Program-made: the position numbers and the translations under genes
Notes under the pieces: generated by a model
What the model saw: only the letters and a program-made list of their open reading frames with translations
Databases searched by the model: none
What the model was told of the DNA's origin: nothing
Part shown: in pieces, positions 1-62,281 of the stretch
Position numbering within the stretch: position 1 is the stretch's first letter
How the letters are laid out: each line of letters opens with the position of its first letter
From: an uncultured Planctomycetales bacterium
GTDB lineage: Bacteria > Omnitrophota > Gorgyraeia > Zapsychrales > JANLHA01
Assembly (NCBI GenBank): GCA_964489065.1
Contig: CAZAXH010000006.1
Location: 66,867-130,866 of the forward strand
Length of the DNA stretch: 64,000 nucleotides
Direction of reading: 5' to 3'

Positions 1-295
1 CGACTAAAGCCCCGGCGTCTTTCTGGTAAATTCTTTGAGAAAAGAAGATTTGAGCGGCCGTAATTTTTATCAGCGCGGCGTCGCAACACAGGATATCCCC
101 GTACTTAGCGGGGCTTTTATAGGAGATCGTGACTTTCCGGACCGCGTACACAAAACCCCGTTGATGAAACATGGTGACGCTTAACCCTTTCTTCTCCAGG
201 AATTCTGTCCGCGCTTCTTCAAGATATTTTAGATAATTCCCATAGTAAACAACGCCGCCGGAGTCGGTGTCATGATAAAAAATCCTTTTTTCCAT
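1..295 (-). CDS. Acyl-CoA thioesterase, 4HBT/YbgC hotdog family (partial; C-terminus lies beyond the window start)
   Basis: Minus-strand ATG at 295..293. Translation MEKRIFYHDTDSGGVVYYGNYLKYLEEARTEFL... matches the YbgC/4HBT thioesterase N-terminal signature (YxDTD..G.V.h..Y). The frame stays open to the window edge. Confidence 0.6.
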   Translation of the reverse strand, partial: MEKRIFYHDTDSGGVVYYGNYLKYLEEARTEFLEKKGLSVTMFHQRGFVYAVRKVTISYKSPAKYGDILCCDAALIKITAAQIFFSQRIYQKDAGALV

Positions 296-309
296 CTGTG
301 AGCTCCTTC

Positions 310-413
310 ATTCAATGAGCATTAAATTTATACGACCCAAGGGAGCGTAAATGAGAAATGCGAATTGATCCTTTAGCGCGAGTGAGCCAAGCGGACGAGT
401 CGAAGGATCTTGG
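310..413 (+). repeat. Copy B of a conserved ~105-nt structured intergenic element; the other copy is at 60881..60982 on the minus strand
   Basis: About 84% identity to RC(60881..60982). Shared inverted repeats: ATTTATAC-N11-CGTAAATG and TTGATCCT-N31-AGGATC. No conserved ORF. Confidence 0.5.
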
Positions 414-564
414 TTTAATACCCCGCAGCTTGCTGCGGTTCATTGAGTCCAGAGCTTGCTCTGGGGTTCATACTTTTGATTTTAAATTCTACTTTTAACA
501 TGCTTTATCTGAACTGTCAAGAAATAGGTCCGGGGATTGAATCGAATATTTTTTTTCCTTATTC

Positions 565-593
565 TTGCATCAAGATAAAAAAAATGGTACATT
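565..593 (+). promoter_or_regulatory. Putative sigma70 promoter for the PilZ-domain gene (TTGCAT-17 nt-TGgTACATT, extended -10)
   Basis: TTGCAT at 565-570, a 17-nt spacer, TG at 585-586 and TACATT at 588-593. It lies about 55 nt upstream of the ATG at 650. Confidence 0.4.
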
Positions 594-649
594 ATGGACG
601 GATTATATAAAAATAATATTTCTTATAAAATAATTAAAGTAAGTAAGTT

Positions 650-1105
650 ATGGAAAAAGCGCAACCAAACGTGCGTCAGGCGGCCTCGGGTTATTCTGGC
701 CCGGAGAAACGGTATTTGCCCCGTTGGGAGGTGAATAATCGTGTTTTGTGCCGTACGGACGAAGGCTTTGATTCTGCCGAGTGCCGGAGCATGGATCTGA
801 GCTGTGCCGGAGTGTGCCTGGTCATGCGTCAAAGACTGCAGCCGGCCCAGAAGGTTAAATTAACGATTTATCTCACCGAGGCGAAGGCCGTGGAAGTCGA
901 CGGACACGTGGCTTGGAGCCGGGTATCCGGTTATGGGAACTTGGCTGGAATCAGTTTTGAGAACACTGAATTGGAGATTCAGGATACGATTTTAAAGTAC
1001 GCGTTTGAATTCAAGAAGAACGCTCTTGTTCAGCACTGGTTCGAAGGATGGCAGGCCGGCGCGGAAACGGAGCCGTCCTCCTCCACCCCTCCCCCGCAAA
1101 ATTAA
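650..1105 (+). CDS. PilZ-domain protein (putative c-di-GMP receptor)
   Basis: Motifs RYLPR (RxxxR) and DLSCAG (DxSxxG) at PilZ-typical spacing, followed by a beta-barrel-like region and a short Pro/Ser-rich tail. Confidence 0.65.
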   Translation: MEKAQPNVRQAASGYSGPEKRYLPRWEVNNRVLCRTDEGFDSAECRSMDLSCAGVCLVMRQRLQPAQKVKLTIYLTEAKAVEVDGHVAWSRVSGYGNLAGISFENTELEIQDTILKYAFEFKKNALVQHWFEGWQAGAETEPSSSTPPPQN

Positions 1106-1114
1106 ATTTTGGGC

Positions 1115-1939
1115 TTATTTTATGATCGCGTTGATAAGACGGCAGTAATCCGTCAGGGACAGTGTTTCGGCTCTGGAAGAAGGATTAATTTTGAGCTGTT
1201 CCAAGGCCGTTAGGATTGTGGCTTTTTTCCACCCTCCCGCCAAAGCGTTGACAAGTGTTTTCCTCCTGTGTTGAAAAGCCGTCCGAATCAATTTAAAGAG
1301 AAGCTCCTCATCCGTGACTGGAATTTTTGTCTCCCGGAAGGATATGTGAAGGAAACACGAGGTGACTTTGGGGACCGGGTTGAAACACGACGGTGAGATC
1401 AGGAAATGAATTTGGGTCTGCGCGTAATATTGGATATAGCAGGATAGCGACCCATAGTCTTTGGAATGAGGCCGGGCCGTGAGTCTTTTTCCGAATTCGT
1501 GTTGCACGGTCAGAAAGGCTTCTGTGACGCAATGACGTTCGGAAATCAGTTTTTCAATAACGGGGGTGGAAATGCAATAGGGCAGGTTCCCTATAACTTT
1601 AACGGGGGCGGGAAGCCCGGACATCGGGAAATTCAGAAAGTCCGATTGAATCAGGTGAACGTGGTCTTCCGGAAAAAGTTCTTTCAGCAGGCCGCACAAG
1701 GCGGGGTCCGTTTCTATCGCGTAAAGCGATTTCACCCGCGGGGCTATGTGCCGGGTTAAGGCGCCTCGCCCGGGGCCTATTTCCAGCACAGGCTGATCAT
1801 CCTGCAGAGAGCACGCAGAGACAATTTTACGGATAATATTTTCGTCGGTCAAAAAATTTTGGCCGAGGTGTTTCTTGGCCCGGGGGAGAACAACTGAAGA
1901 CCGGGGCCGGGAACGGTGTTTGGGCATGACTTTAACCAT
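1115..1939 (-). CDS. rsmA: 16S rRNA (adenine1518/1519-N6)-dimethyltransferase
   Basis: LGQNFLTDENIIRKIV and LEIGPGRGALT SAM-binding motifs. Sits downstream of pdxA as in the E. coli surA-pdxA-ksgA block. Confidence 0.9.
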   Translation of the reverse strand: MVKVMPKHRSRPRSSVVLPRAKKHLGQNFLTDENIIRKIVSACSLQDDQPVLEIGPGRGALTRHIAPRVKSLYAIETDPALCGLLKELFPEDHVHLIQSDFLNFPMSGLPAPVKVIGNLPYCISTPVIEKLISERHCVTEAFLTVQHEFGKRLTARPHSKDYGSLSCYIQYYAQTQIHFLISPSCFNPVPKVTSCFLHISFRETKIPVTDEELLFKLIRTAFQHRRKTLVNALAGGWKKATILTALEQLKINPSSRAETLSLTDYCRLINAIIK

Positions 1940-22618: not shown

Positions 22619-22691
22619 TGGACCGAGGGGGATTCGAACCCCCGACTTCATGATTGCGAACCATGCGTTCTCCCAACTGAACTATCGGCCC
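22619..22691 (-). tRNA. tRNA-Ala (anticodon CGC)
   Basis: 73-nt cloverleaf: GGGCCGA acceptor with the G3:U70 Ala identity pair, D-loop GG, anticodon loop UUCGCAA, T-loop GGTTCGAATCC. CCA not encoded. Confidence 0.85.
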
Positions 22692-25598: not shown

Positions 25599-26021
25599 TT
25601 ATTGAATGCCTGCAAACGCGCCTGTACCAGAACGGGTCACACTGGTCGCATCCTGGGTTATCACGATCGTAGAAGAACCGTCACCATTATCACGCGTGTT
25701 TCGGGTCGCCGTCACCGTATAACCGGTCGCGCTGGTACCGCCGATGCCGTATGTGAAATGGTTGTTCGGAGAGTTGCCCGGGTCTTCGATATCCAGCACG
25801 TTAAATCCGGTACAGCTGGTATAATCACCGTTCCTCTGTAAATAGCATCTTTCCAAAGCCTGGCGGATGGCTGTCGCTGCGGCCAAAGCCTCTGTACTTC
25901 TGGAATATTCAACCGTCGCGAAGAATCGCGGTAAAGCCAAACTAGCTAAAACACCAACGATGATAATGACAATGATGATTTCCAATAAGGTAAAACCGCT
26001 TTTATTATTCATTTTCTTCAT
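25599..26021 (-). CDS. Major pseudopilin / type IV pilin-like protein (GspG-like)
   Basis: MKKMNNKSG then FTLLEIIIVIIIVGVLASLALP class III signal, GspG-like alpha1 (EALAAATAIRQALE). Strong AGGAG RBS. Own terminator downstream. 140 aa. Confidence 0.7.
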   Translation of the reverse strand: MKKMNNKSGFTLLEIIIVIIIVGVLASLALPRFFATVEYSRSTEALAAATAIRQALERCYLQRNGDYTSCTGFNVLDIEDPGNSPNNHFTYGIGGTSATGYTVTATRNTRDNGDGSSTIVITQDATSVTRSGTGAFAGIQ

Positions 26022-59794: not shown

Positions 59795-60850
59795 TTAAAG
59801 ATGTTTGACCACAATATCCCCGACTTCGGAGGTGGAATACCCCATTTTCCCCGCAGCGAGGTCTTTGAGTTTGGTTTTGACGACCGTGATGACGGCGTCT
59901 TCAATCATGCGCGCGGCTTTTTCTTCCTTAAGCTCCTTCAGCAGCATTGCAGCCGCGCAGATAGCTGCCAGCGGGTTGATGATGTTCTTCCCCGTGTATT
60001 TAGGCGCCGACCCGCCGATGGGCTCAAACATGGAAACCCCTTTCGGATTAATGTTGCCGCCGGCAGCGATCCCCATGCCGCCCTGGATCATGGCTCCCAA
60101 GTCGGTGATGATGTCCCCAAACATGTTATCCGTCACGATCACGTCAAACCATTCCGGGTTTTTGATGAACCACATGGTCGTGGCGTCAACGTGCGCGTAA
60201 TCCGTCTGGATGTCTGGATAGTCCCGAGCCACATCATAAAATGTCCTCTCCCAGAGGTCAAAGGCGTAGGTTAACACGTTTGTTTTGCCGCAGAGCGTGA
60301 GCCGTTTCTTTTTGCCGTGTTGTCGCGTATATTCAAAGGCGTAGCGGATACAGCGCTCTACTCCTTTGCGCGAATTGTGAGAAATCTGTATGGCTATTTC
60401 ATCCGCGGTATCTTTTTTTTCAAAAGACCCCAAGCCTTTATAGAGCCCTTCGGAATTCTCCCGGACGACAACAAAATCAATGTCTTCGGGTTTTTTGTTT
60501 TTTATAGGGCAAAACCGGTCGTCATACAGTTGGACCGGCCGCAGGTTGATATACTGGTCCAGGTCAAAGCGCAGTCTCAGGAGAATCCCTTTCTCGAGAA
60601 TGCCTGGTTTAACGTCCGGATGCCCGATGGCCCCCAGATAAATTGCGTTAAAAGTCTTTAATTCCGCGACCGCGGAATCCGGCAGCACTTCCCTCGTGCG
60701 CAGGTAGCGCGCCCCGCCAAAGTCGTAATGAACGGTTTCAAATTTGAACTCACACACCTGAGCCGCCGCGTTAAGAACTTTTAACCCTTCTGCCACGACT
60801 TCAGGGCCGGTTCCGTCTCCTGGAATGACAGCAATTTTGTATGTTTTCAT
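59795..60850 (-). CDS. 3-isopropylmalate / tartrate dehydrogenase family (beta-decarboxylating dehydrogenase, LeuB-like)
   Basis: MKTYKIAVIPGDGTGPEV, GAIGHPDV, DQYINLRP, NMFGDIITD. This subfamily is closest to TtuC/LeuB-like enzymes. No leuCD adjacent. Confidence 0.65.
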   Translation of the reverse strand: MKTYKIAVIPGDGTGPEVVAEGLKVLNAAAQVCEFKFETVHYDFGGARYLRTREVLPDSAVAELKTFNAIYLGAIGHPDVKPGILEKGILLRLRFDLDQYINLRPVQLYDDRFCPIKNKKPEDIDFVVVRENSEGLYKGLGSFEKKDTADEIAIQISHNSRKGVERCIRYAFEYTRQHGKKKRLTLCGKTNVLTYAFDLWERTFYDVARDYPDIQTDYAHVDATTMWFIKNPEWFDVIVTDNMFGDIITDLGAMIQGGMGIAAGGNINPKGVSMFEPIGGSAPKYTGKNIINPLAAICAAAMLLKELKEEKAARMIEDAVITVVKTKLKDLAAGKMGYSTSEVGDIVVKHL

Positions 60851-60982: not shown

Positions 60983-60995
60983 AAACAAGCCCACA

Positions 60996-61036: not shown

Positions 61037-62281
61037 CTAATCCAGAAATCTCCGGAGGATGAGCGAAGCATTATGTCCGCCAAAACCCAGGGAGTTGGAC
61101 ATGGCGACATCAACCGGGGTTTTCCTGGCGTGGTTCGGGACGTAATCCAAGTCACAGTCCGGGTCAGGGGTTTCATAATTGATTGTGGGAGGAATGATGT
61201 TATCTCTGATCGCAAGCACAGAGGCGGCGAATTCTATACCCCCCGCAGCTCCAAGCAGATGTCCTGTCATTGATTTTGTGGAAGAAACCGGGATTTTATA
61301 GGCATATTCGCCCAACGCTGTCTTAATCGCCAGGGTTTCCACTTTATCATTTAGCTTTGTGGATGTGCCGTGGGCGTTGATATAGGAAATATCCTGTGGG
61401 CTGACGCCGGCATCCTGCATGGCTAAGATCATGGATTTCGCGGCTCCGATTCCGCTCGGCTCAGGAGCCGTGACATGATAGGCGTCTGATGTCCGGCCGT
61501 ATCCAACGAGTTCCGCCAGGATCGGGGCTTTTCTGGCTTTGGCGTGTTCCAGGGTTTCCAAGAGTGCCACCCCCGCCCCTTCCGCCATAACAAAGCCGTC
61601 GCGATTTAAATCGAACGGACGGCTGGCCCCGGCCGGGTTATCATTATTTTTAGTCAGGGCTTTCACCGCGCAGAACCCGCCGACCCCCAGGATTGTTGTC
61701 GCGCTTTCGGTCCCTCCGGCTACCATAATATCCGCGTCGCCGTATTGAATCATGCGGAAAGCGTCCCCGATGGCGTTGGTGGCTGTGGCGCAGGCCGTGA
61801 CAATACAGGTCGCCGGCCCCCTGGCTCCGGTATCGATGGAAACCTGCCCGGCCGCTTCGTTAATGATAATGCGGGGGATAAAGAAAGGGGAAATCTTCGA
61901 CGGGCCGCGTTCAATGAATTTCTGATACTCCACTTCCATGGTCCTCATGCTGCCGATCCCGGAGCCGATGAGGATGCCCATCCTGTCTAAATCGATATTT
62001 TTTAGATCCAGGCGCGCCTGGGCGATGGCTTCGCGCGTTGAAACAACCGCGAATTGAGTAAAGCTGGCCAGGTGCCGGGATTCTTTTGAGGAAAAATAAT
62101 TGAGAGGGTCATAATCCGTTACTTTGCCACATATCCGACAGTCAAATTCCGAGGCGTCGAAATGCGTGATCGGGGCGATCCCGCTTTTGCCGTTTACCAG
62201 GGATTCCCAGAATTTATTAATTCCCGTCCCGACCGGGGACACGACTCCAAGCCCCGTTACAACAACTCTCCGTTTATTCAT
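61037..62281 (-). CDS. fabF: 3-oxoacyl-[acyl-carrier-protein] synthase II
   Basis: Cys-His-His triad contexts ([21 protein letters not shown]). 414 aa. Confidence 0.9.

Follow-up and report, generated by a model that had tools for sequence, protein, structure and literature searches.

BOX elements of Streptococcus pneumoniae are composite repeats built as boxA-(boxB)n-boxC (PMC3049150). They are the closest analogue of a repeat family that occurs twice in the DNA considered here, a 64,000-nucleotide stretch of contig CAZAXH010000006.1 from an uncultivated Omnitrophota bacterium (hereafter, the window), with copy A at 307–481 (+) and copy B at 60985 to about 60873 (−). The resemblance is one of analogy and not of homology; the phyla are unrelated. 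It is probable (roughly 75%) that both copies belong to one family of composite small interspersed repeats, which have been inserted and are slowly decaying, and which are not dedicated regulators of their neighbours.

BOX and the Omnitrophota family are both small composite interspersed repeats at dozens of intergenic loci, in which fixed 5' and 3' modules surround variable tandem internal units (in BOX, unit number varies between strains). In both, stable stem-loops are predicted when the repeats are co-transcribed, the internal unit folds largely alone, and proliferation appears to have been slow and mostly past (PMC3049150). Possible effects of BOX on co-transcribed genes have been raised, and are thought to be by-products of insertion (PMC3049150). 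BOX carries terminal inverted repeats (TIRs) resembling ISSpn2 and is over-represented between convergent genes (PMC3049150), whereas the Omnitrophota family has no TIRs and lies mostly upstream of co-oriented genes. Its units are also longer (~90 nt, compared with 45 nt for boxB), its sequence sets it apart, and its helices are unusually rich in tandem G·A pairs. The BOX-type features found are many dispersed intergenic copies, fixed termini around variable units, and extensive predicted stem-loops.

The repetitive extragenic palindromes (REPs) of enterobacteria, their bacterial interspersed mosaic elements (BIMEs), and miniature elements derived from IS200/IS605 are substrates of HUH/Y1 transposases. 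Like the Omnitrophota family, they are imperfect intergenic palindromes, sometimes in tandem mosaic clusters, that lack TIRs and target-site duplications (TSDs), are strand-biased, and have a short conserved flank. In contrast, the Omnitrophota element is much longer than a ~35-nt REP, and its tandem arrays repeat a 90-nt two-hairpin unit directly, while REPs alternate in inverted orientation. No gene for a Y1 transposase or a RAYT (REP-associated tyrosine transposase) was found alongside it: approximate TnpA/RAYT queries gave no tblastn match in ~850 kb, a weak negative covering part of the genome only. Mycobacterial interspersed repetitive units (MIRUs) share with the family their 40–100 bp tandem repeats, many intergenic operon loci, co-orientation, and variable copy number. 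MIRUs carry short open reading frames (ORFs) coupled to flanking genes. The Omnitrophota units, unlike MIRUs, vary in period within arrays and therefore keep no reading frame, so a MIRU-type minisatellite was rejected; the family also has distinct head and tail modules.

Among RNA families, the one partial likeness is to Clostridiales-1 RNA (RF01699), whose function is unknown and which is not known as a dispersed tandem repeat (PMC2864571). Both have a ...AUGAGCAU...AAUGCGAAU... helix that includes a symmetric tandem G·A loop, and in both a second GA-rich hairpin comes directly after it. However, the 5' third and closing stem of Clostridiales-1 are absent from the Omnitrophota element. The Rfam model scores 16.8 bits on copy B (gathering score 48) over model positions 75–120 only, and does not match copy A or a canonical four-unit member (L022). 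Membership was rejected, the likeness being one helix motif below the threshold. No Rfam 15 family was matched in the window at gathering thresholds, or in permissive scans of both loci, three arrays and the canonical member, where this weak, partial and non-recurrent match was the only one. Literature searches turned up no account of any Omnitrophota repeat. Judged by Rfam 15 and the literature searched, this is the first interspersed repeat family described for this uncultivated lineage.

A composite repeat family in a narrow Omnitrophota lineage

The sequence-only reading of the window had picked out two similar stretches of ~105 nt. It held that they were not a chance match, and proposed either a dispersed structured-RNA or REP/MITE-like repeat family (MITE, miniature inverted-repeat transposable element) or a shared operator module. 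The stretches are real repeat copies. A BLASTN comparison of window positions 1–1200 with the rest of the window aligned 297–409 (+) to 60995–60884 (−) at 94 of 114 positions (82%, E = 8e-26), with two gap openings and 3 gap positions; the next-best match had E = 0.22. When wider regions were aligned with MAFFT, the likeness stopped on both sides and did not reach into flanking coding sequence, so copies A and B are not a segmental duplication. A covariance model of the family, run with filters off over the whole window, recovered these two copies alone (117 bits for copy A, 139 bits for copy B). The best unrelated match scored 12 bits, and there is no third copy. That the window holds nothing beyond just two copies is all that would favour a chance match or a local duplication, an explanation of negligible probability that is refuted by the E-value, the dissimilar flanks, and dozens of copies elsewhere.

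Those further copies were found in genome and metagenome collections. Scanning 185,579 species genomes with the two conserved boxes as a pattern returned 25 loci: 18 loci (21 exact-pattern matches) in the Candidatus Omnitrophota metagenome-assembled genome (MAG) Go_SlDig_bin_317, three in a second Omnitrophota MAG, and four singletons in other taxa. The MAG JAGOJP01 holds at least 22 elements. A metagenome scan for the unit core gave 62 loci, of which ~45 come from a single activated-sludge population at ~7x coverage, with flanks identical to those in Go_SlDig_bin_317; twelve metagenome pattern matches were discarded as chance hits in unrelated sequence. Segmentation by motif yielded 80 elements; de-duplication left 49 unique loci. 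The family is found in a narrow Candidatus Omnitrophota lineage, where its copies are intergenic at dozens of unrelated loci. With 49 loci, maintained pairing and dissimilar flanks, the dispersed-family interpretation is supported. The window shares 92–94% identity with Go_SlDig_bin_317, in which both copies are present at orthologous sites. Viral contigs and plasmid and phage collections contained no relevant match: the two-box matches among viral contigs trace to one phage protein-coding gene, with third-position variation, no hairpin and no Rfam match.

The order of a full element is a TTTATT junction, a head, tandem units, an optional tail, and a 3' end:

Head: TTTATT followed by CAATGAGCATTTAGTTT (family consensus)
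Tandem unit: ACACGACCnAAGGGAGTGTAAACTAGAAATGCGAATTGATCCT...GCGAGWGAGCCCAAGCGAACGAG...AGGATGYTGRTTTTAAT, with a period of 89–92 nt (95 nt in one array)
Tail, optional: two 6-bp CUUG-loop hairpins, T1 and T2, 28 nt apart
3' end: TTTATACCTTTGATT, ending TTTGATT

Elements contain from one to about nine units. Across 36 complete loci, 21 have one unit, five have two, three have three, two have four, three have five, and single loci have six and eight. The T1(+28)T2 tail is present in 26 of the 36; it is counted as optional because one locus (L024) has the terminal 15 nt without T1 or T2. Units within an array are near-identical, while arrays differ among themselves. Two assemblies of one locus with identical flanks (L022, four units; L073, three units) differ by a single unit. 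Conservation on the 5' side, measured in 43 non-redundant flanks, begins at position −6 (~1.0–1.4 bits per position), and nothing before that position is conserved. On the 3' side, 30 non-redundant ends drop to background information content after ...TTTGATT. The two ends resemble a direct repeat (TTTATT...TTT(G/T)ATT). The T-rich 5' junction either served as a preferred target or already belongs to the element as its first bases.

Copy A is a complete head-unit-tail element, the features of which are as follows:

307–481 (+): copy A, entire
307–312 (+): T-rich 5' junction TTCATT (family consensus TTTATT)
313–367 (+): hairpin 1, with P1 CAAU/AUUG, tandem G·A, P2 GCAUU/AAUGC, a 2-nt bulge, P3 (partly decayed), tandem G·A, and P4 CC/GG
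368–408 (+): hairpin 2, with a lower stem AUCCUUU/(G)AAGGAU and then GC-GA-G-W-GA-GC / GC-GA-A-C-GA-GC, with stacked tandem G·A
409–420 (+): linker CTTGGTTTAATA, which in multi-unit arrays is the start of the next 90-nt unit (register from L006, L011, L012 and L022)
421–438 (+): tail hairpin T1, CCCCGCAGCTTGCTGCGG, 6-bp stem, CUUG loop
between T1 and T2 (+): tail linker TTCATTGAGT
449–466 (+): tail hairpin T2, CCAGAGCTTGCTCTGGGG, 6-bp stem, CUUG loop
467–481 (+): 3' terminus TTCATACTTTTGATT, where family conservation ends

The module first noticed is therefore real, yet it is one part of a composite of head, tandem units and tail: copy A continues through two more hairpins to 481, and the tail is absent from copy B.

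Several observations concern the arrays. A clustered regularly interspaced short palindromic repeat (CRISPR) array was rejected, since whole 90-nt units are near-identical within an array and no variable spacer is present. At L023 3259–3484 and L012 6485–6838 (orthologues L033 and L059), a T1–T2 tail lies directly upstream of a complete head-unit-tail element, and in L023 the ...CCTTTTATT end of the first tail doubles as the TTTATT junction of the next head. Such an arrangement points to one of two origins, tandem insertion at the 3' end of an existing element or the duplication of whole elements. In L011, a family element begins a few bases past the 3' end of an apparent tRNA gene (GGTTCGAATCC...); the window has a tRNA gene of its own at 22619–22691 (−; Rfam tRNA model, 67.4 bits). 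Multi-unit arrays also yield spurious antisense ORFs of ~100–220 aa, which cluster into a false ‘protein family’ and could be mis-annotated as repeat proteins:

L011 6303–6962 (−): spurious antisense ORF
L010 1991–2332 and 2564–3025 (−): spurious antisense ORFs
L028 51–512 (−): spurious antisense ORF
L055 986–1282 (−): spurious antisense ORF

Others concern distribution and assembly. In a Candidatus Paceibacterota MAG (L004 4045–4177, +), both boxes and the following ATCC flank a perfect 10-bp hairpin, a second long hairpin follows, and box 1 overlaps a zinc-finger gene at its stop codon. The covariance-model score of 31.6 bits is inflated by the way in which the locus was selected; the locus may have matched by chance, may be a terminator region, or may be a distant relative. 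The Omnitrophota MAG USDV_maxbin.135_sub holds two versions of one locus (L014 5765 and L015 198) with flanks ~90–93% identical, each with a head-unit element upstream of a radical-SAM-like gene; these are either paralogues or two strains binned together. Many UPTA01 metagenome contigs end in elements, as expected of a multi-copy repeat, and assemblies of these genomes are systematically broken by the family.

Paired structure of the sense strand

A structure derived from the weak Clostridiales-1 alignment together with folding places two long abutting hairpins on the sense strand. In its family form, hairpin 1 comprises P1 CAAU/AUUG, a tandem G·A, P2 GCAUU/AAUGC, a 2-nt bulge, a 10-bp P3, another tandem G·A and P4 CC/GG; hairpin 2 has an AUCCUnn/nnAGGAU stem and then GC-GA-G-W-GA-GC / GC-GA-A-C-GA-GC. 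Across 40 non-redundant head-plus-unit sequences, standard pairs fill 95.0% of 1311 pair cells (95.7% in the hairpin 1 helix), compared with 27–37% when partners are slid. Both sides have changed in six pairs, and compensatory change is recurrent at two positions: columns 22/52 in hairpin 1 (GC 26, AU 11, GU 2) and columns 73/104 in hairpin 2 (UA 23, GC 7, GU 2, AU 1, UG 1). None of 500 shuffles reached the observed pairing measures, a control that does not amount to a probability because the sequences are closely related. Four tandem G·A/A·G motifs are kept in 35–39 of the 40 copies. The opposite strand would give C·U/U·C instead, so the structure belongs to the strand as given. G·U cells outnumber A·C cells (34 vs 18); the pairing evidence fits RNA and single-stranded DNA alike and does not separate them.

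Individual copies differ in how well they fold. Copy B folds strongly (z = −7.0) and a four-unit array folds far better than its shuffles (z = −7.8), while copy A by itself does not outperform its shuffles (z = −0.44). Uncompensated changes in P3 and T1 are present both in copy A and in its orthologue, and they differ between the two; copy A retains all its modules but is decaying. Internal units, which have no 5' strand for P1–P3, can form hairpin 2 and just the top of hairpin 1.

Against this structure, the pairings first proposed were right in part. The inner inverted repeat exists, but it is the inner part of a much longer hairpin (CAAU-GA-GCAUU-...-AAUGC-GA-AUUG), and its two versions had been swapped: GTTTACAC/GTGTAAAC belongs to the copy at 60.9 kb and the degraded ATTTATAC/GCGTAAAT to the copy at 310. 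For the second inverted repeat, AUCCU/AGGAU and two inner pairs are kept family-wide, while the outer UUGA/UCAA is private to copy B and its orthologue. The supposed direct repeats AGCGnGAG/AGCGnACGAG are the two strands of one G·A-rich helix (GCGAGWGAGC/GCGAACGAGC). The expectation of conserved pairing with compensatory changes was confirmed.

Other candidate features were set aside. A riboswitch-like toggle between hairpin 1 (AUUGA) and the second inverted repeat (UUGAUCC) would need the outer UUGA/UCAA pairs, which exist in copy B and its orthologue alone. A long-range head-tail pairing (UCAAUGA/UCAUUGA), present in the minimum-energy fold of copy A, was not adopted, as the tail linker, on visual inspection, varies among family members and the head shows no matching changes. 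A small leader peptide starting at ATG codons at 358 and 60933 was rejected because the frame differs between copies A and B. Outward or internal sigma-70 promoters (TTTACA-N15-TAAACT, and candidates in the tail) were judged poor in spacing or −10 box, and the scanner called none.

Insertion of copy B and orientation of the family

Copy B lies on the − strand between fabF (61037–62281) and the leuB-like gene, in sense orientation to both, and sits between an extended −10 box and the ribosome-binding site (RBS). Its boundaries were taken from alignment with empty orthologous sites:

61003–60995 (−): extended −10 element TGATATAAT of the leuB-like gene, read from sequence, just upstream of copy B
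60985–60873 (−): copy B, a head-unit element without the T1/T2 tail
60985–60980 (−): TTTATT junction
60979–60925 (−): hairpin 1
60924–60885 (−): hairpin 2 (stretched to 60927–60882 in copy B alone)
to about 60873 (−): short 3' remnant
about 60866–60857 (−): RBS AAGGAAGGG of the leuB-like gene
59795–60850 (−): leuB-like gene (Iso_dh, Pfam PF00180, E = 7.5e-94), the 5' untranslated region (UTR) of which holds copy B

Orthologues of the leuB-like gene, annotated in the sources as 3-isopropylmalate dehydrogenase, were located at 91%, 86%, 85% and 83% protein identity. The fabF–leuB spacers of four more distant Omnitrophota genomes measure 87, 90, 30 and 36 nt, compared with 186 nt in the window. 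None of the four spacers (L090, L091, L092 and L095) contains the element, and the covariance model gave no match on the four orthologous fabF–leuB loci. The two closest of these, L090 and L091, keep TGnTATAAT, GTTTA and the RBS AAAGGAAGG but lack the ~110-nt element; TGnTATAAT is also at the same place in L007. The extended −10 element is host sequence outside the repeat, and was missed by the consensus scanner because it has no −35 box. Empty sites already have GTTTATTTT or GTTTAATTT. Judged from these alignments, copy B is an insertion between the predicted −10 box of the leuB promoter and the RBS, and by parsimony it probably entered the leuB 5' UTR in a common ancestor of the window genome and Go_SlDig_bin_317. 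It is an intact 5'-UTR insertion, and the leuB-like mRNA would be expected to begin within a few bases of hairpin 1. Two Logan contigs of the window's genome with an identical LeuB-like protein (L001 and L002) end 70 and 39 nt upstream of the ATG, in or just past copy B.

Copy A lies on the + strand between a divergent 4HBT thioesterase gene, whose start codon is 15 nt away, and a PilZ gene 168 nt downstream. It lies in the divergent promoter region, points toward the PilZ gene, and is antisense in what is probably the thioesterase leader. The adjoining PilZ-domain protein gene occupies 650–1105 (+). PilZ-domain proteins are known receptors of cyclic di-GMP (c-di-GMP). Elsewhere in the window, a c-di-GMP-I riboswitch aptamer (RF01051; 26183–26266, −; 62.2 bits, gathering score 35) lies ~160 nt upstream of a 140-aa ORF (25599–26021, −).

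Once in place, the copies appear to drift at a roughly neutral rate, without special constraint. Compared with its orthologues, the head plus unit of copy A is 91.4% identical and its tail 88.7%, alongside 91.7% for the adjacent spacer and 86–88% for the flanking genes. Copy B is 94.9% identical to its orthologue, with fabF at 94.1% and spacers at ~96%. Overall, at 92–94% DNA identity between orthologues, flanking spacers reach 92–96% and neighbouring genes 86–94%.

Downstream genes are unrelated, including those for a cupin, a thiamine pyrophosphate enzyme, response regulators, LpxI, an M23 peptidase, an acyltransferase, an epimerase, a phosphoribosyltransferase, and a Rex-like protein. Orientation is less even. 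Among unique loci, elements in co-directional gaps are sense in 19 cases and antisense in three (p = 0.0009), the downstream gene is co-oriented in a ratio of 32:7 (p = 7e-5), and, of 28 co-oriented downstream genes, 17 have their start no more than 30 nt past the element end. Divergent and convergent gaps (4:3) are uninformative. The element strand also equals the majority gene strand of the locus in a ratio of 31:7. Because on average ~89% of coding sequence in related loci is on one strand, transcription-linked and replication-linked orientation are inseparable; a strict replication rule fails, given that copies A and B occupy opposite strands although the GC skew does not switch between them. 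The bias is real, and may stem from transcription or from replication. Gene-strand bias is extreme in the window itself, where the − strand encodes 54 of the 56 ORFs that reach 120 aa, and confounds orientation analysis in this lineage.

These observations bear directly on the operator proposal, in its fullest form a shared operator or riboswitch-like module co-regulating the leuB-like and PilZ/thioesterase genes. The sense orientation of copy B between promoter and RBS would suit such a module, as would the retention of both copies in orthologues at 92–94% DNA identity. However, the element is missing from the same promoter–RBS interval in orthologues at 91% and 86% LeuB identity, downstream genes are unrelated across the 49 loci, unit number is variable, no Rfam riboswitch matches, and copy A is structurally decayed. 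Empty orthologous sites and unrelated contexts refute the module in practice, and it is very improbable.

Competing explanations and meaning of the family

A functional structured RNA, either a multi-copy small RNA (sRNA) or a cis-acting leader, is a more serious contender, though an unlikely one. Its G·A-rich helices would form a protein-binding platform and its arrays multivalent scaffolds or sponges, perhaps as a distant relative of Clostridiales-1 RNA. The near-invariant G·A motifs that form on the sense strand only, pairing maintained through compensatory change, the strong sense bias, and the strong folding of copy B and the four-unit array all speak for it. Hairpin 1 also aligns weakly to Clostridiales-1 hairpin B (16.8 bits, E = 0.25), and a genuine Clostridiales-1 RNA (L016, 105.9 bits) has both boxes followed by a GA-rich hairpin. 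However, that alignment falls well short of the gathering score, and the canonical member does not reproduce it. There is no conserved promoter, with conservation beginning just 6 nt before the head; copy B was inserted downstream of a promoter that was already there, and orthologues lack it; uncompensated stem changes accumulate in orthologous copies at the neutral rate; contexts are unrelated; and internal units lack the 5' strand of the long hairpin. An independent sRNA gene was rejected on the lack of conservation upstream of −6 and on the tail, which is not called as an intrinsic terminator and often lies 7–28 nt before a start codon. A riboswitch or dedicated cis-regulatory leader was rejected because the downstream genes are unrelated and orthologous leuB genes have no element ahead of them. 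A dedicated function as RNA is not favoured. The same low odds apply to the more novel outcomes: that this is a new structured-RNA module, in which G·A helices and the invariant AGAAAUGCGAAUUGAUCC bind a cellular protein and 5'-leader arrays of up to nine units tune the stability or translation of many mRNAs, or that it is a new element moved as single-stranded DNA by an unrecognised enzyme.

How the repeats spread is a separate question. The MITE-like part of the initial proposal needs refinement: presence/absence polymorphism at orthologous sites is found, as in MITEs (copy B is absent in L090, L091, L092 and L095), yet a classical MITE is excluded by the lack of TIRs and flanking duplications. 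In 14 complete elements, the first 30 nt score 4–7 against the reverse complement of the last 30 nt (shuffled mean ~5). The 10-nt flanks on either side are unrelated, and only the element-borne TTTATT...TTT(G/T)ATT ends are alike. No multi-copy transposase-like ORF was found in the ~850 kb, where response-regulator receivers form the sole paralogue group. One possible, though doubtful, route is that the hairpins act in single-stranded DNA as substrates of an HUH/Y1 transposase (IS200/IS605 TnpA-like or RAYT-like) supplied in trans, with insertion 3' of a TTTAT-like target on the lagging-strand template producing the strand bias. This is compatible with the favoured explanation. The element has no TIRs or TSDs, a short conserved 5' flank shared by the empty sites (one empty-site comparison), imperfect subterminal hairpins at both ends, and agreement with the majority strand (31:7) in a genome that is ~89% strand-biased. 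Such features are hallmarks of IS200/IS605 and REP/RAYT systems. Against this route stand the lack of a Y1 or multi-copy transposase-like gene (the weak negative given above), a head hairpin 0–2 nt from the junction, unlike the spacing in IS608, the opposite strands of the window copies without a GC-skew switch, and tandem internal units, which are atypical for such elements.

The interpretation as inserted, slowly decaying interspersed repeats can be extended to a tentative mechanism. New copies would arise by insertion beside T-rich TTTAT-like sequences, through machinery other than a classical cut-and-paste transposase acting on inverted-repeat ends. Arrays would grow and shrink through slippage or unequal recombination between units. 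As most copies are sense and lie from a few to ~30 nt upstream of a start codon, they are probably co-transcribed as 5'-UTR or intercistronic RNA and would fold there. Effects on neighbouring genes, such as transcript stabilisation by a 5'-terminal hairpin, attenuation or processing, would be a by-product of insertion. Several points weigh against this interpretation. The comparison of filled and empty sites concerns one site, that of copy B; the orientation bias is explained equally well by replication strand as by transcription; and the unit-number polymorphism between L022 and L073 could be an assembly artefact. Function, and not recent common ancestry, could explain why the four non-Watson-Crick G·A tandems, and single-stranded stretches such as AGAAAUGCGAAUUGAUCC, are almost invariant. 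Co-transcription and RNA folding are predictions from sequence, and the element has neither TIRs or TSDs nor, in the ~850 kb, a transposase-like multi-copy gene or Y1 transposase.

The family is ordinary in kind, and is notable for its stacked G·A helices, its arrays of up to about nine units, and its strong sense bias. It explains the fragmentation of assemblies of these genomes at particular intergenic sites. It is a warning to annotators, as long arrays give spurious ORFs of 100–220 aa, and to those searching for RNA motifs, as the conserved hairpin upstream of leuB is an insertion and not a riboswitch. If the sense bias is linked to transcription, the family would offer a natural experiment on 5'-UTR hairpin arrays and gene expression, and its variable unit number would also provide ready-made markers for strain typing.

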